A stretch of 64,000 nucleotides of DNA from Dudresnaya verticillata (Eukaryota): assembly GCA_977862235.1 (NCBI GenBank), contig OZ374558.1, positions 1,054,001 through 1,118,000 of the forward strand, in the 5' to 3' direction. The position numbers and the translations under genes were made by a program. The notes under the pieces were generated by a model, which saw only the letters and a program-made list of their open reading frames with translations, made no database searches and was not told the DNA's origin. Shown one piece after another: positions 2,937 to 52,922 of this stretch; the first letter of the stretch is position 1; every line of letters starts with the position of its first letter.

Positions 2937-2937
2937 C

Positions 2938-6655: not shown

Positions 6656-6658
6656 CCG

Positions 6659-10012: not shown

Positions 10013-10029
10013 GTCTGCACCACACATGT

Positions 10030-16029: not shown

Positions 16030-16043
16030 GCGTTTTAAGGGAG

Positions 16044-22697: not shown

Positions 22698-23932
22698 GGA
22701 TCAAGGTGTAAGACAAAGGCGCACATCAAGCTGTAAGGCGAGCACAATCGCCGTGCGCTGTAAGGACAATGCGCCCCGCTGGGGTCCCTACTGGCACCAA
22801 ATTTGATGGCAAATTGCCATCGGGCAATTTGTTGTGTCCGCTCACGCGGCCTGTGGCGGTACTACCACTAATCCGTAACTATAACTGACAACAGTATTTC
22901 TTACGTTAATAATTGCAGCTAGAATAGCTTAGAGTAGAGAATAGGAGGTAAAAGTATTTCCGGCTCTGCCATACTTAATAGGCCCCTATCTAACAGGGGC
23001 CTCCTGAATAGAATCCTACGGTGGGTTTAGGTCTTTTCCTCCTTTTCAGAACTCACGGACTCACCGTACCTTTTCCCCTTTCAGGCGCTCTACGAGACTT
23101 GTCTCCGCACGACGGAGGCTCTGCGCGAGCTAGATAGCGCCGCCCCTTTTCCCCCTTTTCCCTAGGCTTTGTGTCTTTTTCCCAAGTCTCTACCAATCCC
23201 CTTTTCCCCGTGGTACCGAAGCTAGTAGTTACTGTAGGAAAAGGTTCCTGGTTGTTTCTACGGTTCTACCTGACCCGAAGTGTGGTATAACGAGCGCTCC
23301 CGCGCTGTAAGGGGACACGCGAACAGGTAAGTTCTGCAAGGCGTGGTTGCCCGCGCATGCTGTGATGCAAGAACCCGAGATAAGACCCATTTTAATATCG
23401 CTACACCCGCTCGTGCGGTGAGCGGACGACGGCAGACGCGGATCAACCGCGGACAGAGCATACGCCGATAATCGGCGGTTTGACCGGGCCTGTGCGCGCA
23501 TGCCGCGCGCGCGAGATCCGGCCAATGGGTAACGCGCCCTTGGCACGGCGCCCGCGCGCCCGTACAGTACGCGCCGTCAGCACATACGGGTGACACGCAT
23601 CCACGTGTACACGCGCGACACGCACGCCGAATGTATCCGAGGGAATCGTCGCTCGGGTGCGCGCCAGCAATGCGCGCCCTTAGTTTATACTGATTTACAC
23701 TGCGATAGTAGTACTTCTACGCTAGATATTTTGCGCGATATTTTAGTCAGCTCGTGGTGCGCGCGCATGCCAGGTAACCCTACTTTCGAGATATTCAGAA
23801 TCAACTTTGCAAAACAGTACCAAATTGTACCCCGGTTTCTTTAGCTCTATGGAACCAGGAACGTGCGCTGAGAACAACGGTGGAATCCGTTTGTCTATAG
23901 CGTAACTAGTTCAGAAGTTGAGGCGCACTAAA

Positions 23933-24237
23933 CAGTGTGTGTCCAAGACGTTTACGCATGTGAAAAGATCAGTCCAAGGATAGGGAGCTCGCCGACCGTG
24001 CTGGAAATGGACGGTGTTTGACTCAATACAAAGTCGCTCGCACAAATTGCGTCGCATATGCGGTGCAGGCTTATCTACACCAAAATATGACGATCATCTG
24101 GCGGAGTTGACACGAAATCTGTGTTCCGGCGATCGTCTCTACCCGTCCCTATTCCCCCCACTGGTTCGCCGAGTACAGTACTTAAGGATGACTCGGTTCC
24201 GCTCCTCTAACCCTGGAAAGTTCTTTCCGTCGTTCTC
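23933..24237 (+). repeat. Left direct terminal repeat (A1)
   Basis: Matches 27981-28285 with about 8 substitutions (counted by eye); no TG...CA ends. Confidence 0.95.
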
Positions 24238-24289
24238 AGCCCGTGAGAACAAAGGAATTCCGTCGTATTTCCACGTCAGGTGAACTACT

Positions 24290-24902
24290 CAGACTCAATG
24301 ACAGACCGTGAAGCTGGAACTGCCCGCGCAATGTTTCTATCAGTATCACACCGACGCAGCCCTCCGACTACGCCGATCTGGTTAACCACCAGCTTGCTGC
24401 TGGGTTGGTTGGCCGTAAGCAATTGTGGCCCCGGTCAAGCCTCGTTTTGCCTTCCGAGATTGGTTACTTCAAACCTGAGACAACGCTCTTCTTCGAAATC
24501 TATAAGAAGGATCGTCGCAACGCCAAGGAATTGGAATACGTCCACTCCGCAGGTTGTTGGATTGAACAAGCTTTGGGTGCTCTGTCTTTACTGGAAGGGT
24601 AACTCAGCCCTGATAAGGAAGGGCGTCTATTGGGACTCCTTCAAGAAAGTCTACAGGGTGCACAAGAGGTACTGTCTATTCGTACCACACACTTCCAGAC
24701 AGTTCTTACGAAGGGCCAAAGCCACGCTAACACCATCGCGGATCTCGCCGAGACGAGGGTGGAAGCCAAACGTTATCAGATCCCATCTGAGGCGTATGCT
24801 GACGTTTATGCTGAATTGTCAGCCAAGTATGTTATCGAAACTGCTAAACGTCTGGCTCGCGACGCTACCGGCGGTGGCAAGAGGCCGGACAAGAAGGAGT
24901 AA
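24290..24902 (+). pseudogene. gag-like ORF1 of the YR element (broken)
   Basis: Frames 24405-24602 and 24630-24902 directly upstream of and overlapping RT; called by position only. Confidence 0.5.
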
Positions 24903-26549
24903 TGTCACGGGACATCTCCAATGTGCCTGCCTCTTGGCGCCAAGCTCGATGGGCAGGTACGCAACGCAATGCAGAGGCATGGGAAGAAATTGGCGCTTCC
25001 GCATTTGTTGTTCGCGGTCTTCGTTATGGCGTTTGGATCCCCCGCAACGTCCATTTACGCAGGGCCGAGAACTGGCCCATATACCTCAGACACCGGAAGA
25101 CCTCGAGTTTGGCCTGAAGGAACTAGAAGAGGGTTGTCTGGTTGGAACTTATCAGTTGGTGGGCTCCTTATATGCACAAGAACGAATGCGTACTGGTTGC
25201 ATCGTTTCAAGTGCGTTCGTAACTTGGCAGAAGGGAAAGCCGCGCTTTATCATCATCTTAAGGGAACAAAGTACTCACTGGGACAAGAAGTCAGCCAAGA
25301 TGGAGACTCTCTCCTCATTTGGTGGCTTGCTGTGCCAAAACGACAGACTTTTGTCGTTCGATTGGTCTTCTGGTTATCTTCACGTTCATCTACATCCCAA
25401 CATGAGGGACTGGTTTCTCTTCAAATACCACGGCCACTATTACAGATGTATTGCTTTGCCCTTCGGGTGGACTGCCTCTCCCTATTGATTTATCAAGATT
25501 CTCAGTCCTCTCACGAGGTTTATGAGACGCGAGTTGATGTTAAGAGTCCTTGTTTGGTTGGACGACTGCCTAATTGCCCCCGGCGACGGCTCGTATCCAA
25601 GCTCGGCACAGGACTGTCTTCAGGCATCCGGGACATTAGATCGACTGTTCCATCGGCTTGGAATGGTCCGTCATCCTGGTAAAGGTGTGTGGAATAGCGG
25701 CAGTACTCAACTCGAACACCTGGGCCTTGTCATAGACACAGAAGCCTTTCGATATTTCGTGTCACCTTCAAAACTCCAAGACCTGCGCGGAATGGCCAGC
25801 AAACTACTGCATACAGCCCGACAACGCAGTCGCTGGGTGCGCGAGGCAGTTTTAATCAGCTTTTGCGGGCGTGCTGTCTCGCAGTTGATTCCCGTGCCTC
25901 TGGCTCGCTTCTTTACGAGGAGCCCCTACGATGCATTTAAAGCGACTGCTACTCGCCGAGGACGCTATCCCCAGCAAACCGTGAGGCTATCTCATGCCGC
26001 TGTTCGAGATTTACAATCATGGGCTACGATGCTAGCGGGGGACGGACGCCTAATTGCCGGCGGGAAGCCTTCCTGGTCCCTTCACACGGATGCGGCCGAC
26101 GTCGGGTACGGCGGAACTTTAGGAAAGGACTTATCGGCGCACCCGGCGAAGTTTCCGTCCAAGGTAGGTGGTCACTTTTCCTAAGGTTGAAGTCTATTAC
26201 TTACTGGGAGCTGGTAGCCGTAATGAAGGCCCTGGAAAGCGATCTAGTCCGGTCCCGCTTATCTTCCGACAAATCCCTCTCGCTTCTCCACGTGGACAAC
26301 CTAGCGGTGTATCATATTGTATCCAACATGGTGTCCGCGAACCCGGCCTTAATGGACGAGCTCCGTCGTGTACACCACCTCCTCGTCCAAATGAAAGTCG
26401 AAATCCGGGCCTCTTGGCTCCCCTTAGCCCTCAACAAGCACGCAGACCTAATCAGTCGGTCTTGGAATCCGCGAGGCCTCCTGGCGACGCCATTATTGCT
26501 CAAGTCCGTCGAAACCTCGCTCCAATTGCAGCACGTGCGTCGATTATAG
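24900..26549 (+). pseudogene. DIRS-type reverse transcriptase + RNase H
   Basis: KPRFII, LSFDWSSGYLH, ALPFGWTASP, LVWLDDCL, HLGLVIDT; RNaseH LHTDAADVGYGG, ITYWELVAV, HVDN, NKHADLISR. Stop at 25486-25488 and a frameshift near 26150. Confidence 0.92.
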
Positions 26550-26930
26550 CCACTAGGTGAGGCACCCGCCGCTCGCCGCAAGGTTATCATGGCACAGTTC
26601 GAAGAAACATGGGGAGACAGCCACAGTAGGTTATGGAATCCTCCAACTCCTTGGATACAATCTACGCTACTGAAAATACAGGCGGAGCGAGCCCACGGAA
26701 TCATCGTGGTTCCGAACTGGACAGGAGCACCTTGGTACGCGAAGTTGCGGCAGCTCTCCCTCGACTCACGCGTGATCCCACCCGGAGACCATCAACCGCC
26801 CCTCACCTCCGCGTATGCCAACCCATCATGGGAACTTCTTCTCACTGAGGTGGGATATCGACCACTGGACTCATCCAACGGCGCATCGCCTCTCCTGTCC
26901 CTCAGTCTGCCGCTGGCCGCGCAACAGTGA
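26550..26930 (+). pseudogene. DIRS-associated Dam-like adenine methyltransferase domain
   Basis: RLWNPPTPWIQSTLLKIQAERAHGIIVVPNWTGAPWY fits the NPPW..l.Ki......lvvP.W...W pattern that follows RNaseH in DIRS/PAT elements. Confidence 0.8.
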
Positions 26931-27877
26931 GGCTTGCTCCACACTGTGTATCATCCTCTACAGATCTCACAAAGACAAGCCAATGGAACAAATTCCTCCG
27001 TTACTGCGCTGGTGAGTTCCTATCGTCATTGCCAGCCGCGCAAGGGACCGTTCTGTCCTATATCGGCCACTTGTTTGATGAAAACAGAGTCCATGGGAAC
27101 TCAGCCGACCACTACATCTCCGCTATACGTACCCGACATCTCCGTGAAGGTTATCCGGACCCATTTTCTGGCACCCACTGTGCGGACCTCGTTCGATCCT
27201 TTAAGTCTCAGGATGACCGTCGCGGTGTTCTACTGGATGTTCGAGCCGCAATTCCAGCTTCGGTTATTAGAAGGATTCACGACCTGGGACTAAGATCAGC
27301 AGACGGCTCTGTAATACGCCATCAAGCTACCATGGTAGAGTTCCAATATTTGCTGTCTTGGAGAGAAGGTTCCGTGCGAACTGTTCACGTTGAAGATGTT
27401 GTCGTCCAAAGTGGCGGCCTATGTGACCATCAAGTGGTACAGCAGAACCTTTTGACACTTTCTGTCCGTCCTCGCACGCTTAAAGGACGGAATGTTCGAG
27501 GCGTTGAGCCATCCTGTCTGACTTGCCGCCACGGAAACATCAACGCCTTCTCTGATAATCCTCTAGCCCTTCAACAACACTATTGGACCCAGCGAGTCGA
27601 ACATGGCCTTCGATCGGACCAGTACTGGAACCATCCGCGACTTGTCCTACGTCCTCAAGTTGTTTCAGAAGCCCTCGCTGCCTGTCTTGCTGTAATGCAA
27701 ATTGTGCCGCCAGCACTCTGTTCTTACACGTCTCACAGCTTGCGAAGTGGGAGTGTCACTGCCCAAGTTCTTTTGAACGTACCACTAGCCCGCACTACAC
27801 ATAGGGTGGCTGGCGAGACGGCACAATGGTTATTAACGTGTAATTTGACTCCCGTTTACACATATCTATGGAAATGA
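26927..27877 (+). CDS. Tyrosine recombinase of the YR element (C-terminus probably frameshifted)
   Basis: N-terminal WNKFLRYC..LPA..TVLSYIGHL, catalytic R (SWREGSV), YTSHSLRSG (HxxR). Confidence 0.85.
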   Translation: MRLAPHCVSSSTDLTKTSQWNKFLRYCAGEFLSSLPAAQGTVLSYIGHLFDENRVHGNSADHYISAIRTRHLREGYPDPFSGTHCADLVRSFKSQDDRRGVLLDVRAAIPASVIRRIHDLGLRSADGSVIRHQATMVEFQYLLSWREGSVRTVHVEDVVVQSGGLCDHQVVQQNLLTLSVRPRTLKGRNVRGVEPSCLTCRHGNINAFSDNPLALQQHYWTQRVEHGLRSDQYWNHPRLVLRPQVVSEALAACLAVMQIVPPALCSYTSHSLRSGSVTAQVLLNVPLARTTHRVAGETAQWLLTCNLTPVYTYLWK

Positions 27878-27980
27878 CCCATTATTTCTGGTCACTCCGG
27901 AACTCAAGCGTCCCTTCCCTTCCGCCCCCTAAATAGGCTACTTTCCACGTCTATGGTTTCTATTCTCCGGTTTTGTTTTT

Positions 27981-28285
27981 CAGTGTGTGCCCAAGACGTT
28001 TACGCATGTGAAAAGATCAGTCCAAGGATAGGGAGCTGGCCGACCGTGCTGGAAATGGACGGTGTTTGACTCAATACAAAGTCGCTCGCACAAATTGCGT
28101 CGCATATGCGGTGCAGGCTTATCTACACCAAAATATGACGATCATCTGGCGGAGTTGAAACGAAATCTGTGTTCCGGCGATCGTCTCTATCCGTCCCTAT
28201 TCCCCCCGCTGGTTCGCCGAGTACAGTACTTAAGGATGACTCGGTTCCGCTCCTTTAACCCTGGCAAGTTCTTTCCTTCGTTCTC
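27981..28285 (+). repeat. Right direct terminal repeat (A2)
   Basis: Copy of 23933-24237. Confidence 0.95.
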
Positions 28286-28454
28286 CCTCCCGCCCTCCCT
28301 TGTATAAGCCACTTCAAGTCCTTTCCTTCGTCCTATATTTACTACGTACATTAGGTACAATACCTTCTTCTATCTGGGCGCCTTGCTCTACAAATGTACT
28401 AAGAGTCATTGGGTCTATTGATTGCTAAAGTGAATAAAGTAGTCATTTCCTTTC

Positions 28455-28670
28455 CACAGTCTGTACCCCCCAAACGTTTCCGAAAGTTTCACACTTTTCT
28501 GAATTTCTGTAAAACAATTTTAATTAGATTTCCCTCGCCCTGTGCGCCCCCAGGGACGCCAACGCACTCGCCGCACCACCGCTGTCGCCCCTGCCCGCCG
28601 CTCCTATCCGCCGCTCCTGCCAGCCGCTCCTGTTCCTGCGCGCCGCCTATGCCCGCCGCTCTTGCACGCT
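28455..28670 (+). repeat. Left terminal inverted repeat
   Basis: Reverse complement of 42492-42706; the outer ~150 bp are closely matched and the inner part is looser. C-rich subterminal repeats follow to ~29100. Confidence 0.92.
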
Positions 28671-29215
28671 GCTCTTGCCCACAGCGCCTGCCCGCCTCCT
28701 CTGCTCGCCACTCCTCCTCGACGCCCCTCCTCGCCGCCCCTGCACCACGTCCCTGCGCCACGCCGCGCGCACTATTCCAGTCGCCCCCGCTCGCCATCCC
28801 TGTTCCACGCCGCCCCTGCTCCATGCCGCTTGCACTATTCCCGTCGCCCCCGCCCGCCGCCCGCCGCCCCTGCACCGCGCCGTCCATGCACTGCGCCGTC
28901 CCCGCACCACGTCGCGCGCACCACGCCGCTCCTGCACCACGCCACGCACACCACGCCTCGCGAACTATTGCCTTCACCCCCGCTCGCCGCCAGTGCACAA
29001 TGCCGCGCACCATTGCCGTCGCCCCTGCTCCCCTCCCCTGCCCAAAGTGCCAGCCCTTCGCGCATTCGCGCACCCGGCCTGCCCGCTTCAGCCCTGTACA
29101 TGACTTCAGGTACCTGAAGGGCGTCCCTGCGCAGCGACCGTGCTTTCCCAACAGGCACTTGACGTCCTTGCTAGGCGTCCCTGCTCACTGCGCATGTTTG
29201 ATCTACCTGCATGTG

Positions 29216-30830
29216 TCAATCTTGCACACAAGCACTGCAGTCAGGACATACACTGAGAGACTGTAACAGTACCCTCGCTTCATCCCTCCTCAGTCCGCCT
29301 CGTGCCACTTCCCTTCTCGCTGTCGTCCCACGTGGGTGTACACCCAAGACCCCGTAATTCGCTCCCACTCTGCTCTTGTGCTCATCTTCTGTCTCGAACC
29401 AGTGGTATCGCAATGCACACCGTCCGTCGCCATTGCACGCTGCTGCGAAAACGCCACCTTTATCGTATCTAACACCTTCTGCAGTACTCGTACGGGATAG
29501 TCCCAATGTCCTTGATGATTTCTCTCATCTTTGCTGCATGCCTGCATCAATTGTATCGCCTGCGGATGATGTTTGCCAGCCTTGGTGGTTCTTGCTGTTC
29601 TCCATTCTTAACCTCATCCATGCAACCGCAGTGCGGATCGATCCACGTGTCGCAGAGTTTCACTTTCTTACTGCGCCTCTTGAACTCCTTCCATTCCCGC
29701 CCGTTATAAGAGAACTTGTATTCCCCCTGAAGAAACGCTCTGAATATGATTGTGGTCGTGACTGTGTTGATTCTGCCCCGTACACACGTTCGTAGAACTC
29801 TTTGAAATTGCTTCTGTCGTAGAGGCGCACACCGAGGTCTGCAAGGCCGAGTACCTCCTTCTTCTCCTCGATGGCACTGCTCACTTCTCGAACAATGACA
29901 TACTCTCCGATTCGCTGCACAGCCTCCTCAAGTGTCTCCCCAGGCTGGGAGTACTTGTGAAGGTCGAGAATATGCATTCTGCCCTTCCCGGACGTTGTAG
30001 ATTCCTCTTTGTTACATTCTGTTTCCTGACCTGCGCCTGTCCCCGAATCAGCACTCCCTGCTGAGTATTCGGGGTCACTCTCTTCTTCATCACTGCTGAT
30101 TTGTATCGCCTCGTCCACTTCGATGGCCTGTGTGATGTCGCCCATCTCTAACGTGCGCCAAGGTCACTTTCCTCGTGCTGGCCTGAACGCGACCAATTCG
30201 TGTGCTAGAGGCCTTCGACATGTGCCATCTTGTAAGATCTGGAGAGTTCGGAATGCCGTACAAGTCTCCCGCAGCAGACTGTAATTTCTTCACGTATGTG
30301 GAAGCATAGTACTAAGGTGCAATAACCGGGATGTGACACGGAAAGGGCGTGTCCACACTTTTCACGACGTTTTTATAGCCATAAAACATCGCGGCAACGG
30401 AGGACACATCACATGTGTCTACACATTGTCTGGAAACCTCCTTCAGATTCCCATAACGTGGTTCACAGTTCTGAAACTGATGGACATACCGGCCTCTGTA
30501 CAGTGCTATTACGGCAACAGGATCAAAGAATTTCTCAGTAGGAGCGTTTCTGCTCCCGGTCTGAAACATATGGGGAAGGATTGAGTACGACGAGGGCATT
30601 ACCAATAATTCTAGTGTGACTTCATACGCATATGCGTTGGACACATTACTACCGTGAGATATGCCGCGAGCTGTACTTGCCTTGTGATTCCCGCGGGAAT
30701 GCGCGCTTTTTCGACTCTGTACGGCCACTATGGCGCCTCTAGCGCTTCCTGTCCGGGCAAAACTGAGTTGTAGTGACTGCACATACTCCTGCACCCGCAC
30801 GCCCTGAAGACTGGTTTCCGGTACAGTAAA
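29216..30830 (-). pseudogene. Unknown cargo gene(s), divergently oriented to the MTase gene
   Basis: Chain of minus-strand ORFs (30312-30800 reading through a stop into 30090-30293; 29660-30145; 29290-29550) with protein-like composition; no recognised domain. Confidence 0.45.
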
Positions 30831-30989
30831 GTGGCTTCGTTGTCGCTGCTAGAGTGGTTTTGAAGCAGTAACAGTGTAAAAGGAGTTTGATCCAGCCGAT
30901 ATCTCCTACCCAGTTACTGCACTTTCCCTAAGTCCGAAGTCAAGTTGTTCATCACGATCATCTCTTTGCACTTGCGATAGACCACCTGC

Positions 30990-33988
30990 ATGTGCGCCAT
31001 GGGCAGAAAGTCCAACAGAACGAAGAAGACGCCCGTGACAAATGACCGTAATGAAGTCGGTCTGCACCAGCAACAGATTCTGTTCGCTGATCTGTTGGAC
31101 GGTTCCATGCTGAAGCGTGTCGATCCCCGGGCTTGTATACCCCTCACTAAGTTCAGGCCGATATCCAGGTCCGGAGTCGAACGGCTCAAGCGTATTTTCA
31201 TCGGACTAGGAGGGGGTACAAACCAGGGGATGCCACATGCTCCCGAGTCGATAGGATATGTTGCAGGGAGCGATATGCCAGTGATTATCGAGCTCACGGG
31301 AGCCCTTCGCAAGCATGTAGGAGACTATTTTCGAAGTACTCGGAATAAGGAGGGAGCGTACCGTACGGAGAAGGAGATAAAGGAAATCATCAGTTCGAGA
31401 GGAGTGTGGCACGGTGTTGTAGATGGAATGTATCGACTGGTTGCAATTATTGAGCTCATGGACATACACTACGAGATATGGAAGACATTCTCGTGGCCGG
31501 TTATGCATGTCAAGGGCGGGGCGTCTCTGTAGGTTCTGAAACAGTTTGCAAGACACCAGAACCGCAAACATCAGTCTGCTTGTTGTGTAGAAACCACGTT
31601 CTTTGACACACTGAAAGGCCTGCGTGAAGAAGCCGACCGTCTGCAGGCTGAAGCCAATGGAAAAGAGCCGACAGCGAAAACAGTTGCCGCGGCGTTTTAT
31701 GGTGCTTCTCATCTTCACGAGAACAAAATCAGGCAAACAGCCCAGGTTGTTCTTCGATTGCATAGATCGGTTCTAGATACTCTCGAGGAGATTGCAACAC
31801 AGGAGGATGCAGACTTGGCCGCCTCGACTTCCCTTGGAAGTGCAGGGGCTGGAATTTCCAGGCAGCTCGTAATATCTTCGGTAGACGGCCGAGTCTATCG
31901 GGATTTTATCCATATGTCGTCACTGAAGTCTGCTACAGTGTTTATGAATGCCGGCTGGTCGCCAGACGGGGTAGAGGCTCAAATATGTACCTTGTAAAGG
32001 CTGCGGGAAAGGGCCAGAATGCATAATTTCAGACCTGCACCGTACAAGGTCACAGTCGAGGAATTCGAGAGAGCAAGAGACGCGTTGGTAGAAGTTAGGA
32101 AGTTCGAGAGCCTGAGGGAATCCCCGAATTGGCCTTCAGCTATGTCCGTTCTGAGGACCAATCTGTTGCACACGCGCAAACTGGACCTGGACGTTATGTC
32201 GAATCGTGGACAGAATCTCACACTGAAGTCGATTCTTACCATGTACCGGGACAGTTGCCCAGGGGAGGCTCCACAGAAAATAGAGAAATACAAACGCAGA
32301 TTAGAAGTTGCGCAGGCACGATTGTCGTCTAGCACATATCCAAAACATCCTGAAGAAGAGAAGAGCCCTGACAGTCATATGAAACAAGTGCCGTCTGGAA
32401 TGCTCTTGAACAAAACTGCTTCACAATGTGCCCCACAGACAGATACGGAGAAGGAGAACGACGACAACCGCAGTGATCCCGGCCACCTGGGCTCCACTGC
32501 GAGAAGCGCAACTCCGGATGAGTCCTTCCTGTGATCAACGGGAATGAAGGAGACGCTGTCACACCTATCGCTTTTCCCGGAACGGCCACTGCGATAAGAT
32601 TGGAAAGATTGGATACTGTTAAGAAGCTGAAAAAGGATAATAGAGACGAAGTCGCAACACCGGACGAGATACTGAAATCGGAAGGCCTTGGGTGTCACCA
32701 AATGCGCTGGCAGGACTACAACCAAAAATACAGAAAAAGTGAGAGCAACCTGTTTGACTTCATTCTGTCGGACACCCCATATGGAACCCCTGCCTCACAG
32801 TCTCGAGCTGGGAAAGGGTATGACAACTACCTCAGCACTTCAGAAATGAACGAGTTGGCTGCGTTTTGCAGGCTGACAATCGCCCCGGGTGGTTGGGTGT
32901 TCCTGTTTGTGTTATTTCAGACCTTTGAGCCCAGGAGGCAGCGATTTTCAAAGAATGGTTTCGACTGCCCAACGTATGCATTCGTGATTCTGAAGGATAC
33001 CGGTACTGTTCAGGAATCCAGGGGCAACGAAAGGCCGCAAAATGGCGCAGACATAGCAGTTTTTGGGAAAGCACCGGGTATACACCCATCCGGTTCAAAC
33101 GTAGACTTGAAGAGCCCCTATCACTTATTTAAATGCCAGGAGAAAAGGAAGTTCGCATGCATGTCGTCTGTTCCAATCTCCAAGAGTAAACTGTTGAGAC
33201 CTCAGACAAGATCCCCGTTGCTGACCGAAGAAAAGAATGTTGACTTGCTCGCGGAAGTTCTGATGACGTTCTGTGTAGAGCAAGGGCATGTCCTGGGTAT
33301 GTACGCTGGCACGATGACGACCGGCATAGCGTGTCTTGTCACTGATAGGAGATGTACATGCATTGAGCAAAGTGCTGAAACGTTCAGACATGCACACGCA
33401 AGGCTATCGCGACTGGCGCAAGAGGCACAACGTCTAACCAAGGTAGCCCCTTTGAAGTAAATATGTACTGCTCCCGAACAGGCGTCTAAAAAAGCATGTG
33501 CACCGGGCTCAGAACAAGCTGCCTGTCAGTCGGGTAGCTCAGAGCGTAAACGAGTGTGTTCCGAAGGGGCGCCTGAACAGATGGAACCGTTGGCGAAGCG
33601 GCAAAACGTCGAGACAGGAGCAGTGCCTGCTAAGGTCAGGGGACGTAATGAGAACCAGGGAGAAGGGGAAGATGTGACCCAACGCCGAGAAATCAGTGGG
33701 GGAGATGAAGTCACTCTCTTGATTGACAAGAAGTCTGTAGGAACTTGCAAGGTTCAGTTCGGGGTGGACGGGGCGCGATTTTGGGATCGCATCCATGGTA
33801 CTGCGTTACTCTCCTTTCAAAGAGAAGGTCAGTACCTCGTCGCAGTCTATGCATTCCAAACGGCGACGCAAAGCTCCCATTTGCGATACCCGTACTCATA
33901 CCGGGAGGTAGACGGTGAGATCCCGACAACTTTGAGTGAGATCCAAAAAGTGTTTGCTTGGGACGTCAATCAGATGGCATTGACATGA
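30990..33988 (+). pseudogene. ParB/Srx-like + beta-class N6A/N4C DNA methyltransferase + C-terminal Tnp1/EnSpm-like domain fusion (~1000 codons, decayed)
   Basis: One frame 30990-32534 with stops at 31530 and 31995; one frameshift at ~32531; one frame 32531-33988 with a stop at 33458. ParB-like: FRPISRSGVERLKRIF...HGVVDGMYRLVAI. MTase: FDFILSDTPYG (motif IV, 32771), LTIAPGGWVFLF, TEEKNVDLLAEVL, VLGMYAGTMTTGIAC..RRCTCIEQ (motif I after IV = beta order). Confidence 0.85.
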
Positions 33989-34791
33989 ACTCATGGGACG
34001 AGCTTTTGATGGTCAACGTCGAATTGGGCGAGTTTCCTGAGATTAGCACGCGACCGTTTTCAAGGACGCCTTACAATAATCCGACACCAGCCTGCTGGCG
34101 CTCTACAGACACAGATTCCTTCCGCACAGACGTCACCGCCCCTGCAGTGTTTGTCATAAGAACGGAATCGACCAGACTGCAACGTTTCGTTTGCGGGGCT
34201 GACAAATTCGGTCCGCGTCGCAGTCAAGAAGCTGGGAGGCAATGCATCGCCTGATGAGAAGGTGCATCTTCGGAATGCGCAACGAAGAGCTGTTAATGGT
34301 TGACATAGCCGCGAGTTTCCAGGAAATGGCAGTGCGAAATCTGGAGCAGGGCGCGGGGGGCGCCCTGCATATTTGCGCTGCACACAAGACAGGGGCGCGC
34401 ACGCTGGTTGTGTCGGGCAGTCGTCGGTGCGGCGGCCAACGCAGTAGTGAGAAGGCGGGTGATTGCGGCGTGAGAGCGGCACGGGTGGACATGCGCCATC
34501 CCGTCCAACAAGCTGTGCACCGCGGTGCCGAAACGGGGTGATGGATGTGCGGGCGAGAAGGCCGCTCGCGGGGCTCCTCGCGCAGCAGGAACGAAAAAGT
34601 TCCGATAGTTATGTGCTTGTCTCGTGCGGGAGAAGCTATTACGTATTATTGATAATACGATGACAGTTCTGATTGCTTGGAAAAGGCGAAAAGGTTTCTG
34701 AAAGCTTCCCTTTCTGCGCTGCAAAGAGCAGCTGTTTCGTTGTCCCAGGGCCCGCAAGGAAAATATCTGCTGAAAAGAGCTTTACTTTCGT

Positions 34792-36830
34792 GTGAAATAC
34801 GAAAGCTTTTTAGATATTCCGGTTCTGGCCGTATCAATACCCAATCAGAAGTATTTGAAAGATCATTTCCAGGAAAAGCTATGCTGTATTATCCGTACTA
34901 CACCTACAGTTTCGCGGAGCTCGCCCTTTGCAAAACCTAAAGTTTCGTGTCGCGACCTGCTACTCCGCTCGTGTTTCTCCGACGGGCCGTCACCTGGCCT
35001 CTACCTATTCTCCCCAGGCGCCGTTGCTACCTCGGAGCACTTTGTTCACGGTCTGTGCCGCACTGTCCGCAATTCGGCCGATGGCGATGACAGTGGTGCT
35101 GAGAAATCACCGGTCGATCCGCGGTCGTCGGACCCCGACGCGAAGCCAGGCCCCGGAGAGCCTAACTTGGGCGACGACAACCCGGTCACGTCAGACTATG
35201 TCTCCAAGCCAGATCCGCCTGCAGACGCCGCGCCTGCTGCGAACGGAATCGAGCCTGGGGCTGGTGGTGCTGAGCCTCCCACAAACGCTACCCAGGCCGC
35301 GGCCCCGGAGCAGTTCGAGCAGATGCAAGTCGAGTTGGTTTCTGGTGCAGCCGGTATTAACACAACTGTTATCTTCAAGGGCGTTGCACTCACGAGCAGC
35401 TTTGAGTCCAACTCGAAGATGTCGGATATCGCGTCGCTTGGTGCCGAGGATAAAAAAGAGGGCTGGTATGCAGATAGCCCGTACACGGACCGGTTTTCCT
35501 TCCGGTTTGCATACAGCGAGAATGTGATGTGACCGACGATTCCGTCACAGAACCGGTGGTGCGCGTTTCCGATGAGAGTAGTATTGCTCCGACTGTGGAG
35601 AAGTTTACCGACAATGTGGAGGAAACCATGGGGGCGTTATTTGTGCCCCACATGTGAAACAGAATGATCGTCAACCAGAATTTCGTTTACAGTAGCTTAC
35701 AGTCCGCCGTCGTCTCTGACGCTCCCGAGGATACTTGATCTCCCATGCCGGGCTGCACCGACCTCGTCCCCTTGATCATCATCATTATCTCAATCATCAC
35801 ATTAAACTCAAGTCATTTGTTTTGGTCACACCACACATGCTCCAGCACGACCTGTTCAACGAGGATGTACATACGACACAACCGAAGCGCAAAGTTTGCG
35901 CTGTTTTTAACACTGAAAGTAGGCCCGATGCAGCAATCGATCGAGGTCAGCGTACAGATGAGCAAGCCGCAATGGAACCTCGACTTCTTGGACCCGTACC
36001 TCACGTCGGACAACTATATGATGAAAGTGGCGCTGCGTAGCACCGTCGTAGGAGGGAGCATGTCGGCAGATGAGCCGACCATTATCACTTTCAACAGACG
36101 ACAGTCGTCGCAGTCACTGCGAAGGCGACAACTCGGCTTACTTTTGCCGTTGCACCTTGGCAGAATGTGACTGCGACGTGGAGGAAGACCTGTGGTGGAT
36201 GCTATTCAACTTCCCTTCTAATCGGCACAACTGGAAAGGGCTCCTTTGATGATGCGCAAGCAGGATAGCTTACTCCCAAGCACAAGTTAACTGAATCAAC
36301 TAACCTAGGTAGCGCCCTCGGAAGGATAGAAGAAGTTGATGAGCGCACCGCGTATAAGCGGTTTTATCTTACGAATAGCGAAGGCGACTCAGATATTCAT
36401 ATTCAGACTACTGCTACGACTGCAACCAAGCAATCTTTTGTTGCTGCGTACTTTGAAGCACCGTTCAGTGCGTCACATTCCTACATCCAGCCAGGCGCTG
36501 CCACCATATCGATACATGAAACAAAATCCCTTCGGCTCTACTTCATCTGCAAACAGTTTGGCGCTTCCTGGGTATTGGTCACTATCCTGATCGTTAAGTA
36601 CAGTAATCATCATCAAACACTGCGTTGAACCGAAGGTCTACCACCATTCCGGTTTCACGCAAACAGCAGGGTCTATCATGTGGACTGTCATGCTTCTGGC
36701 TGCAGCAAGTGCAGTCGGGCCAGGGATTTATATGCGCCGACGAAGCGGCATCAAATATGCACCAGTACCGACAAACTACAGGGCCCCATAGACTTCATGG
36801 ATCTCAGTTGCAAACATGGTCGTAGTTTTT
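34792..36830 (+). pseudogene. Possible captured host-type gene (Pro/Ala-rich linker, beta-rich segments, late hydrophobic stretch)
   Basis: Successive plus-strand frames 34792-35532, 35745-36170 and 36625-36825 read like one fragmented protein; no family recognised. Confidence 0.4.
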
Positions 36831-37293
36831 ACTTTGGTGCGTCGCAGTTGACCCGTACAGCCATTCATGGCCCCTACCATGGATCCATTCCCGGCTCACC
36901 CCTGGTCGTCTATCAGGTGAGTGACTGCGTCAAGATTGGTGGCGATGAACTTGCAGCCAGGTTACTCGTTAACGCATAGCTGCGCGTACCTAATCTTGTA
37001 GTAATTGATGAAGCGGTCTAAGCCAAAAACTACTGGCTGCTCTGTCACCCGTTCTTCAGGCTGTCGACGCCGTCGACCGCAGGTGCCTCGCCGCTGCGCT
37101 GTTCGAACTGTCATGATTTGCGCGGGCAAGCCATAAAATGGCTGCCACAGACCACTACCGCTCTTGGAAGCCAATATCAGAATGACCTATCGTCTGTCTT
37201 AAGCCCTGCTGGATACTTGCGGACTAACGCTACAACTCAATGGTGTGGTCTCTATTGGGAAACTACTCAATGCAGGTATGCAATCATTGCGCA

Positions 37294-39833
37294 CTAGTTT
37301 TGGTGAAGACTCTCGCGAATCTTCTTCTGTACATTGACGGGGATACGCGAAGTGCTTGTTAAGCCACTAAATTCCACAAGCACCGAGCCAGTTGGAATCT
37401 TCCCGATCCATGGCGCTTGGTCATCTAAGATGGAAGGTTGATATCGCAGCCTATATGCGTCATGCCGTTCTTGCTCAATTGCTTCGTACCAACATATCTG
37501 CAACTGCACAGACTGTACCTTCCGGCCTCGTGTGCTCCGCAGCACCTCTTGAATCTTCGCAAAGTAGAATGGGCATTCTGGAGTGCTGCCCTCATAGCGA
37601 ACGGCAACGAAATTATTGCGCGAGAACGAGACTTGTATGTCCTCCATTAAGTCTCTCTCGTTGTCGTCGGGAAGGAACTCTAGCTCGTGCTCTTCCAGCC
37701 CTTCCCTTGAGTATTTCCCATTGGTTTCCAAGACAGCTTCTAGCTTCCAGTGAAAGGGTTCCATCCTGCCCCGATAGATGTCGTCCCGCAACTTCCGAAG
37801 CTCTTCAATATTTTTATGTCCTTTATCCGCCCTTCTTCAGAACGAATGCGGTCCCCGACTTCTTTCAAATCTGGGGGAGCACGGGCCCGAGTTGGAGGGG
37901 TTTTGGACAACTCAGGGGGGAACACAATGAAACCCTTATGCACACTGTATGTGAGTAGGGGTTTCCATTCACCGTCGCACTGTATGCGAGCCTGGTACCC
38001 CGTCTTGAAATGTGCATCAACTCCTTCCAGTTCTCCTGCCACCCTAAAGAACCGGAAGAACCTGTAATGTGAAAAGGTTTCAACCTTCCCTACGCACTTA
38101 GAATCCTGACAAAGACCTCAGAAGTTTGGAATGTGCAGTATTCTTGCAATGTGCGGCTCCGGCTGGTAGGATTTGCGCAGCTCCTCTATCATGTCATCCA
38201 TAGTGATGGCATCTCTTGTCTCCAACCTCCTTGAGGTACAACTGAAAGCCTGATCAATGTCAGAATGAGTGTGTCCTATCGGCAGAAATGAGGCTTGTAC
38301 CGCTTGAAAAACGCCCCATGCTACTAGACTTTCCAGATAGCAGAACATGAACCTGTTATTGTGCTCCCTTTTACAGTTGTCCCTCTGCAGCAGAAGCGTT
38401 GGTTGCAGATTCTCACTTGCCTTCCTGAGGCTGAGCGATCGGTGTATTGCCTCTATTACATGATTGGCACCGGATTCGTACTCCGCCGTCATGACGAAAA
38501 AGCACAACCTATTCTTAGGTCTGTGTTCCAGAACGCCTATAAGTTTCACCTTGATTGCGTGACCTACTGTAGCTTTCGTATTCACGACAAAGTGCGGCAG
38601 TCCGAATGCAGACTGGTCTGCTCCGTCTACCACAATAGAACAATACTCTTCAGGAAACATTATAGCTTTTTCCGCAGTCTTCTTGCACTGCACGCGCTCC
38701 TTCCAGACCATGGACAGATGCTGGCGTCTGCACATCCTAAACGGCCTCCCCGCCCGCTTGTCGGTACCCGCCTTGGCAAGTCCATCGCGAATCTCCTCAC
38801 ACTCTGTGCTCTTCGTAAAGCGACGTACTTTTCGGACCCTAATGTGGGAACAGTGTGCCTTCCACGTAGCGTAAAAGTAGCTCGCGCTTGCAGGTGTCTC
38901 GCCACTATACAAAAGGCCCTGGTCTGTTGTGAATTGCTCGTACACAGTCTTCCTGTCAAAATATGGCAGATGTAATTCGTCTCTGTCCGGCATATGGTCT
39001 GCAGTAGCTTCAGCAATCCTCTCGAGGTACGAAACGATTCTGTCCCGTTATTCAGAATTTGCGTCTCGCGGAGTGGCAGCGGAGAGGGATAACGAGCCGC
39101 CAAACATCTTGACAGACGTTTGCAAGTCTCGTGAAAACCCAAAAGCTTACTCTAAGAAACTGTAGCACACCAGAGCACCATTGAACCGGTAAAACCTGTC
39201 AGGATGGAGCAGGTGGAATAGATAGTCCCTCCTTTCGTTCTTTTCCATCATCAGAACACGAAGATCTTCGGCTTTGAGGTAAACCTGCTCACAGGCCTGG
39301 AAACATTTCTTTGTAGAACATCACTTCTTGAGATCCCAGTCCTCCGTGTCTATCCTCGCTAGTGCAGCCTTACGCCTTATCATCAATGCAGTCTCGCCCT
39401 TCTTGGGTCTCTTACTAACACGTGAACGATAACGATAAATTCGCTTCTTAACGGCACCAATTCCCATCGTACAGTTTCCTCTATGCTGCTCAGAACCAAC
39501 ACGATCAGCTTCTCCTCCACTCTCTGCGTCCTCATCTTGGTGATCCGGGTCAGCGAGTATTTCTGTTCCATCTGCCACCTCGTCGGCAGGTGCTGCAACT
39601 TCATCAGCAGGTTCTGTCTGTGCGCCACCCCGAGTGACAAGGTCGATAGTGGATTCCGAACCCTCACCTTCTTCGCGACGGTCTTTCCCCTCGCTTGCTG
39701 CCACCACCGCCCCCTCCACGTCATCGTCCTCAGCTTCCTGTTCTGCTACTGCTATCTGGTCTACATCCTGGCCTGGCCCCGCTTCGTGGTCTGGCCCTAG
39801 TTCTCCTAAGGTCCCCGGTTCCGCTTCGGCCAT
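37294..39833 (-). pseudogene. DUF7869-type (Sola-like) DDE transposase
   Basis: Acidic N-terminus, Cys cluster (CSTKKCFQAC), H..VRKVRRFTKSTEC, SIVVDGADQS, LLQRDNCKREHNNRF, FLPIGHTHSDIDQAFS. Read-through of a TGA at 38118 into 37740-38042; C-terminal SH3/BAH-like FVAV..PFYFAKI..ICWYE. Confidence 0.85.
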
Positions 39834-40016
39834 AACGTTGTCGTCTTCAGTGATCCCCTTCTTCTCGTTTTAAATAAGGCGGTTTGCTGGCTTTTGAGGG
39901 CGTGGTCGTAACGGCGTCTTTTCCACCGGGGTGTACTGCAGGGGAGACTCCATATCTCTATCATCTTCAAGCACAATGTCACACCTTTCCCCGGGTGACA
40001 TGAATGGGTCCGGATC

Positions 40017-40697
40017 CTACACGACTGTCTCCCGACCGCCGGCATCTGCTGCTACAGGCGTGAGAGGAGGGGTGTTAGGAGGTCTTGGGCTGCGAATGGT
40101 GCCCTTACCTTGGCCCGGTGTATGCACAGTACCGGAATCAGGGCATTCCCCCCGGTCCCTTTCAAGTAGCATTGCCTCTCCAGGGTTCATCTCTGGCCCA
40201 GACTCCATCGCCTCCTTCAGATACACAGCCATCATATCCTCGAACTGGTACAAATCCCAACAGTGCTCACCTTTACCCATTTTGTGTAGCATCTTGGGAA
40301 CCGCCCTGTCAGATAAGTACTGAAATGGGTTGGGTAGGCGCTCTGCTCCGACTAGGCAGTGCACTCGGTGGATTGCTACCCATACCTCCCCGGGGCGTTG
40401 CTCCTTATTGAGAGAATGGCCGCCAAGGACTGTGCAGAAACGACCGCTGGGGTCCTCCGTACCGGGCGGTGGCAGGAAGAGAGTGGCACGGGCCACATGC
40501 TGTCCTCCGAGAGTTATCGAGACGCGCGCACCCGGCTTAACATGGGGTTGATTAATACTTACCTCCGCGGATGCGACCTGAGGCTTCTTCCATAGCGTCA
40601 AAACGCGGCAGTAGGGGCTGGTCCGGCGATGCCTGGGAGGGAGGGCAATCAGGAGAGCTCGGAGGTCACTGCGAGGGTAAAGGTGCAGTGCATGCAC
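40017..40697 (-). CDS. Cargo ORF with Tnp1/EnSpm-like small domain, paralogous in pattern to 33554-33988
   Basis: VSITLGGQHVARATL...LGGHSL..EQRPGEVWVAIH...LPNPFQY...HCWDLYQ parallels VTLLIDKKSVGTCKV...IHGTAL..FQREGQYLVAVY...LRYPYSY...FAWDVNQ. Confidence 0.55.
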   Translation of the reverse strand: MHALHLYPRSDLRALLIALPPRHRRTSPYCRVLTLWKKPQVASAEVSINQPHVKPGARVSITLGGQHVARATLFLPPPGTEDPSGRFCTVLGGHSLNKEQRPGEVWVAIHRVHCLVGAERLPNPFQYLSDRAVPKMLHKMGKGEHCWDLYQFEDMMAVYLKEAMESGPEMNPGEAMLLERDRGECPDSGTVHTPGQGKGTIRSPRPPNTPPLTPVAADAGGRETVV

Positions 40698-40724
40698 CGT
40701 GGAAATATCTTAAATAGGTGAGGT

Positions 40725-41384
40725 TTGCGAGTACCGGAAAGATCGCAGTGCTCCAATTACTGGGTCAGGAACGAACAACTCCAGAGTAGAGATACTTGGG
40801 ATTGTATTCTGTGCAGATTCTGTGGTGCGTGCAGAACCGCCTTCCAGAACAACTTGTATCGGGAAAAATCATTCGTACACACGCGACGTGAGGCGCCAAT
40901 GACAGGTGCCGTAGAGGGTAGGAGGAGCACCCCGGGCACGAGTACTCGTGAGGGTATACCCTGGTGTGTAGGCTCCGCTTGCCAGTCGAGGTCCATGTTG
41001 TTCCGCTCGGTTCTGCTTACGGTGACAATGCGGTGGGGGCACGGGCACATCAAGGACAAGAGGAGGATACAAAGACTAACAATTTTGATGAACGTGAACG
41101 AGCTTCTTCCAAAGCAGTACAGTGCAGCTGCGGTGAAAAAGGGTACTCTGACTCCAAGTATGGACGCGGTTGAGTTTATTAATGAGCGTGTCACGGATAT
41201 GGCTACAGAGCAAGCAAACATTACCAATGTGATTACTCCACAGAATCTCGGCGTGAAGATTGCCGTGAAAACGTTTGGAGACAGTCGCTTGAACAGCGTC
41301 TGGAAGCAGCTCCTTTCCCAGCGGAGCCGCGAGGTGTACACACATCCATGTGAAACATATGCAGATATTGCAGAAGAGAACTAA
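40725..41384 (+). CDS. Hypothetical cargo protein (fragment)
   Basis: 219-aa ORF whose second half has ordinary globular composition; no motif recognised. Confidence 0.3.
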   Translation: MRVPERSQCSNYWVRNEQLQSRDTWDCILCRFCGACRTAFQNNLYREKSFVHTRREAPMTGAVEGRRSTPGTSTREGIPWCVGSACQSRSMLFRSVLLTVTMRWGHGHIKDKRRIQRLTILMNVNELLPKQYSAAAVKKGTLTPSMDAVEFINERVTDMATEQANITNVITPQNLGVKIAVKTFGDSRLNSVWKQLLSQRSREVYTHPCETYADIAEEN

Positions 41385-42491
41385 TCGTTTGCAGCTCTTG
41401 CAGACATGCTCGCAAAGACCACAGATGACTTAGTCATTTGATAGGTTGGTCACGACGGATGAGTCATTATCAAACCACGAGGGCCGGAGAGGTTGTCGTC
41501 TCGCGAAGGGGATAAACTGAATGTACTTACTGTGTTGTGGAATGAGTAGTTAGAGGCCACGGCAAAGCACCAAGCACATACGTACGTACTTACACACACA
41601 CATCGAATGACACATACGCCACTCGCGACCACGTGCACGGGCGTGCACGGGCACATGCACATCACCACTTGGGAATACAAAGATCGCCCGTGCCCGATGT
41701 TGTTGCTCAGTTAGCAATCTACTGAAGGGCCATTTCGAGAGACTTCTCTCGACTAGTTTTATTCATAAGTAAGCTGTGTAATGACGTCAACAGTACTGTT
41801 TTGAAGAACCTACCATACCGTTGTACCCAAGCCGGCCGTGCTGGCATCCAGCATCTCACGAACCAGCCCTGCACGGGCAACGGAGCGGTATCCCAAACGT
41901 TTGCGACAAGTCAATGGCATATGGCACAGCAATGCTTGTACTAGGCTAGCACTGTCTCCATCCGCCCCATTGTTTACTTCGCACCTTCAAAGTCCAGAAA
42001 CAGAATGCCAAACGTGTTCCACATCACACAGCACACAAGTCCTCCTCATCCAGTTTAGGCCATTAGTTACCGCTGCGGCTTGGGAGTCGCGTCGTGTAAA
42101 CCATAAGGATTTCACTGCAGCATTCAGCCGCTGGGGCGTCTGATCGAGGACTTGATCACTAGGAGCAAGTATCAGCAGCAATCAAGCGGGCGATCATTAG
42201 CGGCGGTCAGACAGGCGGCAACTAGACCGGAGAGCAGTAGCGGCGGGCAGACGCGCGGTAGACATTCGCGGCGAACAGATGAGCAGCAGGCGAGGCGAGG
42301 AGGAGTAGCAGCAGATGCGCGGTAGACAGTCGCGGCGAGCAGGCACAGCGAGCAGGCGGGCGACCAGTAGTAGCAGCAGACGCGCAGCTGGCAGGCGCGG
42401 CGAGAAGGCACAGCGAGCAGGCGGGTGACCAGTAGTAGCAGCAGACGCGCGGCTGGCAGGCGCTCGTCCAGCAGATGAGTAGCGAGCAGGC

Positions 42492-42706
42492 GGGCGTGCA
42501 GGAGCGGCGGGTATGGGCGGCGAGCAGGGACGTTGGGCACGGGGGGCGTACAGGAGCGGCGGGCAGGGGCGACAGCAGTGGTGAGGCGAGTGCGCTGGTG
42601 GCCCTGGGGGCGCTCAGGGCGAGGGAAAAATCTAATTAAAATTATTTTACGGAAATTCGGAAAAGTGTGAAACTTTCGGAAACGTTTGGGCGGTGTACAG
42701 ACTATG
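42492..42706 (-). repeat. Right terminal inverted repeat
   Basis: Reverse complement of 28455-28670; preceded by G-rich subterminal repeats from ~42170. Confidence 0.92.
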
Positions 42707-43311
42707 TTTAGTACGCCGCAACTTCTGAACTAGTTGCGCTATAGACAAACGAAATCCACCGTTGTTCTCAGCGCATGCTCCTGGTGCCATAGAGTTAAAG
42801 AAACCGGGGTACAATTTGGTACTGTTTTGCAAAGTTGATTCTGAATATCTCGAAAGTAGTGTTAAGTGTCAGACGCACGGCGACATACACGCGCGCGCAC
42901 CTCCCGCGGGGGATACTTAGTATACGGGGTGAACCGCCTTGACAATAAAGTGCCAAGCTGGCTTAGGGACCGGAGGATACCCCCAAATTCGCCCCCGGGG
43001 ACGACACCGTGTGCGACCTGGGCCTACGTATCCTGTTCCGTTGCCTGTCTTCATTACATTTACTGGTGTAACTGCCTTTATCGCTTTACGTGCACTACAG
43101 AACTTCTACGTGAACCGGGGGTTTACAGTCGACCCCGACCACGTTCTCAACCACCCGGGGCACACCCCCTTGTCCTGGCTGCTGTACCACCCTGTCGACG
43201 CCCGCCTCACCGCATGGTGTTTTGCTACCACTCAGCGGGAGACCGCGCGAACACGGTAGGGGCAATCCCCGTTGCTTTCGAGTGTTGACCACACATGCCC
43301 ATGGACGATAT

Positions 43312-43790
43312 TGTGGTGCAAAGCATCTGTGGACTATCTACACCCCCGGACAGTTCGGCGTCCGGTGCGTAGCCGATTGTAGCAGGGTAGGTGTGGTAGA
43401 GCGAAGGGGACTCGCCGAGGGCGGACTGTAAACGCGCTGGACTGTAAAGGGAAAACAAAGGAACAAAAGGAAAAACGCCGAAGGAAACACGTCTCGGACG
43501 CAGTGCGGACGCGAGAGCGCGGTAGTTCAGACTCTTGAGCCTCAGGGCTAGCGGGTAGGTACGCGTAGCGCGAGAAGGGTAATCTGCACCAAGGCCGGCT
43601 TGCCGGGAGTTTACCTTCACGTCTGGGACGGATCACCTAAGTATAAAACAACTACCCAGCGGCGGCGTTGCGCACGCGGCGCGCGGGAACTCGGGACACG
43701 TGTTGTCCCGAGGCGCGTCTGACACGTTTCGTCCGTCATGCAGCCGCGCATCAGACAGAGTCACGCGTAGCGCGCCACGTGAGTGCTCAA
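43312..43790 (-). repeat. LTR family A, 3' half
   Basis: TGTGGTGCAA terminus at 43312; closely alignable to 9200-9560. Confidence 0.8.
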
Positions 43791-44329
43791 ACAACCCTTG
43801 TAAACATTTTCAAAATGTGAATACATGGAGGATGATTGGGGATAAAAATTCATTTGGATGTGGGCTGCAAACGGATGATAGGATTACCAATGGGGCTCAA
43901 TGGAGATTGTGTGGAGGGTGATCGGAGGACGCCGTCATCATAACAACACGTCCTTCGTAAATTCTCCGATCACCATCCATACGTCCTCCAAACGTCACCT
44001 TGCCCTCCAACGGTGCGCAATTTGGCCTCCAGTTGAGGACGAGTAGTCCGAACGTAGTCCATAATATTTACTAGGCTACGTTATGCAGAATGATATCAAA
44101 CGTACGGAACGGAGCGGTGTTGTTGACAGGTTTCTTGGACTTGTCAGGTGCAGAAGGGCCAGACTATTCAGTCTCGTGGAGGAGGAGAAAATTGCGCTTC
44201 CCCACCGGTCCCCGCTCTTTGACGGTGGCCCCTCTTCTTCACAACCAGGCGGTGCCTTACTTGCCTCAACAACAACCGCGGCGGATCCAGCGAGTAACAC
44301 GGGGACCTCGCCAGACGCGGAGACGCCTC

Positions 44330-48757: not shown

Positions 48758-49018
48758 GCAATGGCGATTGCGGCAAAACGATCAGGAAACAACCACACAG
48801 CAGTGTTGGGACTTACAAAGCGCCTATGAACGGGTAGATAGGGCGATGCACCTCCATCTGTGCGCGGACCGGCTACCGCCCGAATCTCTTTGCGATGACC
48901 CCACACTGCTCGAACCCGTACGGATTAGAACGGTTCGAAACGCTACTGGTACCTACGGTGAAAGACATAGGGGAGTGGTACAGGGCTTGCACTTACGCCC
49001 AATGATTTTCAACCTCTT

Positions 49019-52914: not shown

Positions 52915-52922
52915 TTTGGAGA

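Follow-up and report, generated by a model that had tools for sequence, protein, structure and literature searches.

It is rare for a transposon to modify its own DNA chemically, and elements carrying a ParB-methylase gene have so far only been proposed to do so, from single families. The closest described system is Sola1-1_Ec32 of Ectocarpus, a 21.5-kb element with AACCG termini, a 282-bp terminal inverted repeat (TIR) and a 4-bp target-site duplication, in which a transcribed gene for a 1104-aa ParB-like and N4/N6-methyltransferase protein lies opposite the transposase gene, and for which a self-modification hypothesis was proposed (PMC12477816). Genes joining a methylase to a SET domain, and ParB to a 2-oxoglutarate (2OG) oxygenase, are described in Plavaka and other red-algal elements (Bostrychia preprint, bioRxiv 10.1101/2025.02.11.637652), multi-open reading frame (ORF) elements of 16–20 kb in Chondrus (PMC6431247), and ParB-linked methylases in PMC4738411. 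Here we analyse a 64,000-nucleotide stretch of Dudresnaya verticillata DNA (assembly GCA_977862235.1, contig OZ374558.1, positions 1,054,001–1,118,000, forward strand; ‘the window’) containing a giant TIR transposon with the decayed remains of two genes, one for a Sola1-like transposase and one, hereafter the cargo gene, for a ParB-like domain fused to a beta-class amino-methyltransferase.

A preliminary description of the window, made from its letters without database searches, held that eukaryotic cut-and-paste transposons normally encode no DNA methylase. The design is not unreported: the same fusion was published in 2025 for the Ectocarpus Sola1 element (PMC12477816), and the window element is a real, dead new member of that design. 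The two are alike in size (21.5 kb, against 19.1 kb here or 14.6 kb without a nested insert), in having a long imperfect TIR (282 against ~375 bp; termini AACCG against AACCC/AACAC) and in placing a ~1000–1100-aa ParB-methyltransferase gene on the strand opposite the transposase. They differ in that the Ectocarpus gene is transcribed and intact, whereas the window copy is dead, and in that the window protein ends in a domain common with its transposase, which the available Ectocarpus text does not mention, the two elements being compared by description only. The red-algal Plavaka (EnSpm) elements with the accessory genes PAG2 and PAG3 are likewise DNA transposons of 17–19 kb with PF01555 methylase and ParB-like genes, a proposed self-modification and genes that move among families. 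Two separate genes accompany their EnSpm transposase, one joining the methylase to SET and the other joining ParB to a 2OG-oxygenase, whereas in the window element ParB and methylase form one protein beside a DUF7869 transposase. New here are a large family of cargo genes, their linkage to and joint divergence with the transposase, a ~95-aa domain common to the two proteins, and the clade-wise retention of a DPPY catalytic motif.

Beyond transposons, the order of domains is that of phage proteins combining ParB_N and N6_N4_Mtase in ParB-terminase loci. These are the nearest named Atlas clusters (0.86–0.88, leads only), the top two clusters being unnamed and eukaryotic, and a phage ParB/sulfiredoxin (Srx) protein in BFVD aligns over 801 columns (E 1.7e-11). 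Unlike the cargo protein, phage ParB-methylases are ~400–500 aa long and have neither its long helical middle nor its C-terminal domain, and identity is ~25%, in the methylase part only. The bdelloid N4CMT, a host gene marking transposons, offers a parallel as a beta-class amino-methylase of bacterial origin working in a eukaryote (fold Z 19.6). VANDAL elements offer another, since their VANC protein alters the methylation of its own family; VANC induces methylation loss and is unrelated in sequence to the cargo protein. Our literature search, whose scope excluded most subscription journals and Repbase Reports, returned nothing on DUF7869, the ~95-aa domain or the joint divergence.

Linkage of the cargo gene to a Sola1-like transposase

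The window transposase is matched by DUF7869 over 38121–39047 (E 1e-39, Pfam). It has 112 relatives, 110 of them above 200 bits and the best at 50–52% identity, and the conserved columns include DGADQ, QxDNCxxENKN and FLPxGHTHxDIDQ. The consensus of the Sola1 profile (PMC5751038 supplement) reads ilysDncagqNkn ... kflepgHs, with 36 states from D86 to H122; the window reads QRDNCKREHNN ... SFLPIGHT with the same spacing of 36, a comparison of motifs made by eye. This spacing recurs in 99 of the 113 transposases scanned, the pattern being missing in the other 14. TIRs, a Sola1 trait, are present as well (~375 bp). The motifs thus match those of Sola1 and we classify the transposase as Sola1-like, an assignment made by comparing motifs by eye with the published Sola1 and Sola3 profiles rather than by a profile score.

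A first guess, Sola3 with a TTAA site, was rejected because the Sola3 profile reads vllrsdnaGcYh (PMC5751038, same supplement) against QRDNCKRE in the window. An EnSpm/CACTA (Plavaka) identity was rejected too, as the transposase is matched by DUF7869 alone; a reading of the right end as CACTA is possible but gives flanks of TAA / TTA and makes the left end CCCTA. Passages from PMC4455052, PMC5199201 and PMC3985635 provided no usable Sola definition. A DUF7869 transposase fragment labelled as a protein of a bacterial metagenome-assembled genome (P0100) likely represents eukaryotic contamination of that assembly. Pattern scans, which miss distant relatives, recovered no relative of the transposase or methylase in viral contigs (candidate stretches: 0 of 38 and 0 of 55) or in prokaryotic genome contigs (0 of 41).

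We fetched the best 80 of 144 transposase loci, 15 of which have at least 2.9 kb of flank. The cargo gene is clearly present in five of these long loci (independent E-value, iE, ≤1e-26; L004, L009, L013, L016 and L031) and weakly matched in two others (L021 and L029); L067, outside the 15, also gave a weak match. No related element complete with both TIRs was found among the 80. Sequence records point the same way: nine of 44 distinct methylase contigs (nine of the 16 that reach at least 6 kb) agree in source and in exact length with one of the 136 transposase records, against a chance expectation of 0.16 on average and 2 at most (600 shifts, lengths moved by 1–300). This pairing is indirect evidence, drawn from the source and length of the records.

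The two proteins have also diverged in step. Distances between the N-terminal halves of the cargo proteins correlate with those between the transposases (Mantel r 0.94, p 5e-5) over 12 pairs, namely the window, eight length-matched pairs, L004, L009 and L013, with a second near-identical pair, L016 and L031 left out. The correlation is 0.93 on the nine pairs without L004, L009 and L013, and 0.82 (p 0.007) for the window plus five same-source pairs. In approximately unbiased (AU) tests the tree of each protein is not rejected by the alignment of the other (p-AU 0.27 and 0.06), and the joint divergence extends to ~30% identity. Common host ancestry may add to the correlation, but its simplest reading is joint inheritance of both genes. 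No internal repeats bracket the cargo gene. These comparisons support the view that the cargo gene is an integral part of the transposon family, and the proposal in the preliminary description of a transposon family carrying a ParB and beta-class methyltransferase gene is borne out by both co-occurrence and co-divergence.

In L004 the methylase and transposase genes are head-to-head, and the space separating them has two adjacent perfect palindromes (2448–2506), a candidate operator. Palindrome arrays of parS-like look (26–55 bp) occur near distant DUF7869 transposases in L041 (1270–1379), L050 (435–529), L053 (1073–1180) and L064 (1586–1731), and no ParB-methylase was detected in these four loci.

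Domains, motifs and decay of the cargo protein

The cargo gene encodes, in order, a ParB/Srx-fold domain, a helical middle, a beta-class methyltransferase and a C-terminal domain of ~95 residues. PF01555 (N6_N4_Mtase) matches the piece 32522–33457 (residues 79–291, E 1.5e-6, above cut-off), and motif IV (DTPY) precedes motif I (GMYAG), the order of the beta class. Two intact relatives, P0003 (887 aa) and P0004 (944 aa), are 42–46% identical to the window protein across both halves and show DPPY, D-x-Y-x-G and VVDGMHR, so the window's DTPY, G-M-Y-A-G and VVDGMYR are attributed to decay. The gene is interrupted by stops at 31530, 31995 and 33458 and shifts frame near 32522–32534; introns are not needed to explain these breaks, the first two stops aligning to single residues in relatives. 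The positions of VVDGMYR (31416), DTPY (32771) and VLGMYAGTMTT (33290), the three stops and the one frameshift agree with the preliminary description. That account noted decay in the cargo gene only, but the transposase is decayed as well, its reading frame changing near 37800 and four stops falling within the 575 codons translated. Neither gene is functional in the window copy, where the catalytic and S-adenosylmethionine (SAM)-binding motifs are not intact (DTPY, GMYAG with the motif I Asp lost, and stops).

A structure prediction, as the preliminary description had suggested, was made for the homologue P0004, to which all fold results refer rather than to the window copy. The model reached a mean predicted local distance difference test score (pLDDT) of 82.5 from a 51-row alignment (34 from the single sequence). 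Its residues 513–769 resemble CcrM (Z 24.3, root-mean-square deviation (rmsd) 2.9, 229 aligned), followed by M.BceJIV, MboIIA and M1.HpyAVI (Z 22.4–23.4). These top four are all N6-adenine beta-class enzymes, and the N4-cytosine (N4C) enzymes PvuII and bdelloid N4CMT rank lower (Z 19.7 and 19.6). Residues 2–144, in a region where pLDDT is mostly above 90 (residues 1–140), resemble PadC at a modest Z of 8.8 (rmsd 2.5, 96 aligned), with further matches to Pnob8 ParB (7.8), KorB (7.2), sulfiredoxin (6.8) and a serine kinase (6.4). Methylases aside, the five best matches are all members of the ParB/Srx superfamily, the serine kinase being taken as one, and in the model the N-terminal domain has the ParB/Srx fold.

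The cargo gene belongs to a family with 272 matches at E ≤0.001 and 35 at 1e-30, in a search of 50%-identity representatives. From the longer sequences among the best 150 of these 272 we aligned 51 full-length homologues, of which 48 are matched by PF01555; weak profile matches to DndB (one), DGQHR (two) and a PHROG ParB-like family (one) also occur. G-x-x-R is kept in 21 of 50 homologues and an upstream Arg in 49 of 50. In the window's clade of 13 (Shimodaira–Hasegawa-like approximate likelihood ratio test (SH-aLRT) 98.7), DPPY is present in 12 of the 12 other members.

The ~95-aa domain at the C-terminal end of the cargo protein recurs at the N-terminal end of the transposase (hhalign 99.4%, E 6e-21). 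It is present in 13 of the 51 full-length cargo proteins and nine of the 112 transposases. Neither Pfam nor PDB sequences gave a match to it, and a resemblance to the CACTA TnpA protein, suggested by a motif, is without support from either. In a tree of this domain eight transposase copies group together (99), the window's and P0006's are unplaced, and element-specific exchange is not evident.

Proposed function and its rivals

On balance we lean towards the view that the window contains a decayed giant TIR transposon in which a Sola1-like transposase and a ParB/methyltransferase gene were inherited together. The intact product of the latter gene would likely bind the ends of its own element and likely write N6-methyladenine (6mA) there, which would keep the element transcribed and open to the action of its transposase. 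Because methylase and transposase diverged in step in related elements, intact copies are predicted to mark their own DNA, and for the window's clade self-marking by 6mA is likely, as judged from sequence. The ParB and helical domains would direct the protein to the element, with the 13-bp and 65-bp subterminal repeats as its probable target, where the methyltransferase would write 6mA, adenine being the probable base. The mark may favour the element through expression or through end recognition, and the common ~95-aa domain could steer methylase and transposase to the same DNA or chromatin feature. An association of 6mA with active transcription is described for three model systems (PMC4738411). 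We entertain more tentatively, and with more doubt than conviction, that a Sola1 lineage has long kept two proteins working as one system: a ParB-like clamp would load at the ends and spread 6mA over the element's own DNA, the common domain would tie the mark to cutting, and sister lineages would have turned the methylase into a non-catalytic reader. If true, this would be the first case of a eukaryotic cut-and-paste transposon shown to place a bacterial-type mark on its own DNA. The window copy is a fossil and contributes little beyond anatomy. Members of the family with open frames and an intact motif, with naturally catalytic-dead lineages as controls, make the self-marking proposal directly testable, and the question bears on the origin of 6mA or N4-methylcytosine (4mC) signals in repeat-rich algal genomes.

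Several observations weigh against self-marking by a co-inherited enzyme. On the side of linkage, there is no trace of the cargo gene in eight of the 15 long loci. Gene orientation varies, being convergent in the window, head-to-head in L004, L009, L013 and L016, and tandem in L031. The Mantel values may be inflated by common hosts, and eight of the 12 pairs rest on length matching and not on DNA read. On the side of the protein, the ParB Z-scores lie near the range that the tool calls common (<8), and no ParB Pfam family matches the window's N-terminal pieces or any of the 51 full-length homologues (E ≤0.05); of the two profiles named in the preliminary description, only that of the methyltransferase was recovered. 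Palindromes with 8-bp arms, as in a parS-like array, are found in neither subterminal region of the window copy. Lastly, a canonical motif IV, [DNS]PP[YFW], is kept in only 16 of the 51 full-length homologues, and since the other 35 are without it and intact frames such as those of L009 carry TAIPS, catalysis appears dispensable in some lineages. The hint of 6mA that the preliminary description took from D-x-P-Y is upheld by DPPY in the nearest intact relatives, and undercut in that the window's DTPY is itself decay and most of the wider family is non-canonical. L009 has both frames open (335–3319, minus strand; 5248–7992, plus strand) and is a natural candidate for a pseudo-enzyme element.

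These motif losses are what one would expect if the methylase fold were mainly a non-catalytic DNA- and SAM-binding scaffold, a pseudo-enzyme helping to assemble or regulate the transposition complex. They affect whole clades (EPPx, xxPS, DPFQ), 23 of 34 non-canonical homologues nevertheless keep motif I as D-x-[YF]-x-G, and the domain common to methylase and transposase would suit such a role; the methylase domains of DIRS elements are described as probably inactive (PMC4738411). The retention of DPPY throughout the window's clade, though its N-terminal halves are 42–63% alike where measured, points instead to selection on catalysis, and we regard a scaffold as unlikely. Somewhat less likely again is an active enzyme serving as a brake or timer, which would methylate the element's ends or promoter and so limit transposition or tie it to replication. 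Dam plays this role for IS10 and IS50, CcrM and other orphan regulatory methylases are nearest in fold, and the two genes lie head-to-head in four loci, with the L004 palindromes between the two starts. Against a brake, the published proposals for such cargo favour self-modification and anti-silencing, and in one genome Plavaka elements with cargo made up 36% of the sequence (bioRxiv 10.1101/2025.02.11.637652).

Least probable of all are two further accounts. The cargo gene might do nothing for the transposon and be a passenger or a nested element of its own: the long loci without the gene would fit, the window copy is dead, and accessory genes are described as moving between transposon families in red algae (same preprint). 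The record pairing and the joint divergence to ~30% identity largely exclude this account, and the lack of bracketing repeats, the open frames in relatives and the domain in common with the transposase also speak against it. We give equally little credence to an enzyme that writes 4mC, or acts on RNA, instead of modifying adenine in DNA. All close relatives have DPPY and not SPPY, a motif rule for adenine versus cytosine that has exceptions, and N6-adenine DNA enzymes rank highest among the fold matches, although N4C and METTL3-type enzymes have the same fold (Z 19.7 to 14.6). PF01555 spans both chemistries, and the base is left open in the Ectocarpus paper (PMC12477816). The reading we prefer remains 6mA self-marking by intact members of the family.

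Element boundaries and neighbouring features

The preliminary description had bounded the element by TIRs of ~215 bp. That repeat is real (28455–28669 with 42494–42706; 219 columns, 84%, E 1e-62; 209 columns at 90%), but it runs on into an outer part (23775–23945 with 42694–42864, 171 nt, 92%), giving a full TIR of ~375 bp with arms 94% (outer) and 90% (inner) alike and an element of 19.1 kb (23776–42863), or ~14.6 kb without the nested insert (Table 1). Since the right arm is uninterrupted, the left arm must have been broken by the insertion at ~23933–28454. With AAC termini the flanks agree in three of four bases, a candidate target-site duplication from one copy; an alternative reading of the ends, from the same single copy, gives GTAA / TTAA, likewise three of four. 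CpG and 4-mer content within the element shows no strong depletion (CG 0.93, GATC 0.78). A Pfam scan of 17 frames of the window gave two significant matches, PF01555 and DUF7869, and none for the other 15.

Table 1. Coordinates of the transposon, its genes and its nested insert, as positions in the window
Feature	Position	Strand	Basis or remark
Left 4-bp flank AGGT	23772..23775		Candidate target-site duplication, 3/4 bases equal to right flank
Left TIR, outer part, start AACCCTAC	23776..23935		Inverted match to 42704-42863, 160 columns, 94%
Nested tyrosine-recombinase (DIRS/Ngaro-like) retroelement splitting left TIR	23933..28454	+	Repeats, reverse transcriptase match, frames by eye
Left TIR, inner part (the ~215-bp TIR of the preliminary description)	28455..28669		Inverted match to 42494-42706, 209 columns, 90%
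Subterminal 13-bp tandem repeats	28573..28768		Candidate protein-binding array
ORF remnant, kind undefined, divergent from methylase gene	29660..30163	-	No Pfam match
ParB-methyltransferase gene, ~995 codons, 3 stops and 1 frameshift	30999..33988	+	44-46% identity to intact P0003, both halves
ParB/Srx-fold domain (modelled), VVDGMYR at 31416 (relatives VVDGMHR)	31098..31580	+	Aligned to P0004 residues 2-144
Beta-class amino-methyltransferase domain, DTPY 32771, GMYAG 33296 (relatives DPPY, D-x-Y-x-G)	32669..33421	+	PF01555, homologue model
C-terminal ~95-aa beta-rich domain of cargo protein	33698..33985	+	Also at transposase N-terminal end
Decayed coding-like stretch between the two convergent genes	34774..37297	+	No Pfam match in 3 frames
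Sola1-like DUF7869 transposase gene, decayed; DGADQ ~38627, DNC ~38381, GHTHSDID ~38276	37300..40562	-	PF25273, motifs
Transposase N-terminal copy of ~95-aa domain	40233..40562	-	Profile match iE 7.5e-13; hhalign 99.4%
ORF divergent from transposase	40722..41384	+	No Pfam match
Subterminal tandem repeats, 65-bp and 13-bp	42247..42578		
Right TIR, unbroken, end GTAGTGTT	42494..42863		Inverted repeat
Right 4-bp flank AAGT	42864..42867

The nested retroelement (~4.5 kb) has 305-bp direct repeats (23933–24237 and 27981–28285) that are 97.4% identical, a weak reverse transcriptase match (E 0.003) and frames that by eye resemble RNase H, a DIRS-type methylase and a tyrosine recombinase. It is younger than the transposon and lies outside the transposon proper, the greater age of the latter being suggested by TIR arms only 94% and 90% alike. 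Its methylase-like frame (26550–26930, plus strand) shows a WNPP..W motif by eye, has no Pfam match and is of the DIRS type regarded as probably inactive in PMC4738411.

Outside the element, four of the 13 long frames scanned with Pfam have a match, all to reverse transcriptases, and no host gene was recognised among the 13. A second frame pair with a reverse transcriptase, of DIRS/Ngaro-type look, lies at 52361–55382 (plus strand; RVT_1 E 1e-7), and several diverged tandem copies of a non-long terminal repeat (non-LTR) retrotransposon reverse transcriptase, at ~2.5-kb spacing, occupy 9775–19905 (minus strand). At 59401–61071 (plus strand) there is an open frame of 557 codons with a coiled-coil-like tail and no Pfam match. 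Other elements bounded by inverted repeats are present at 7603–10012, 43392–48662 and 47458–49861, among them an inverted pair 570 bp long and a family that has four dispersed ends.

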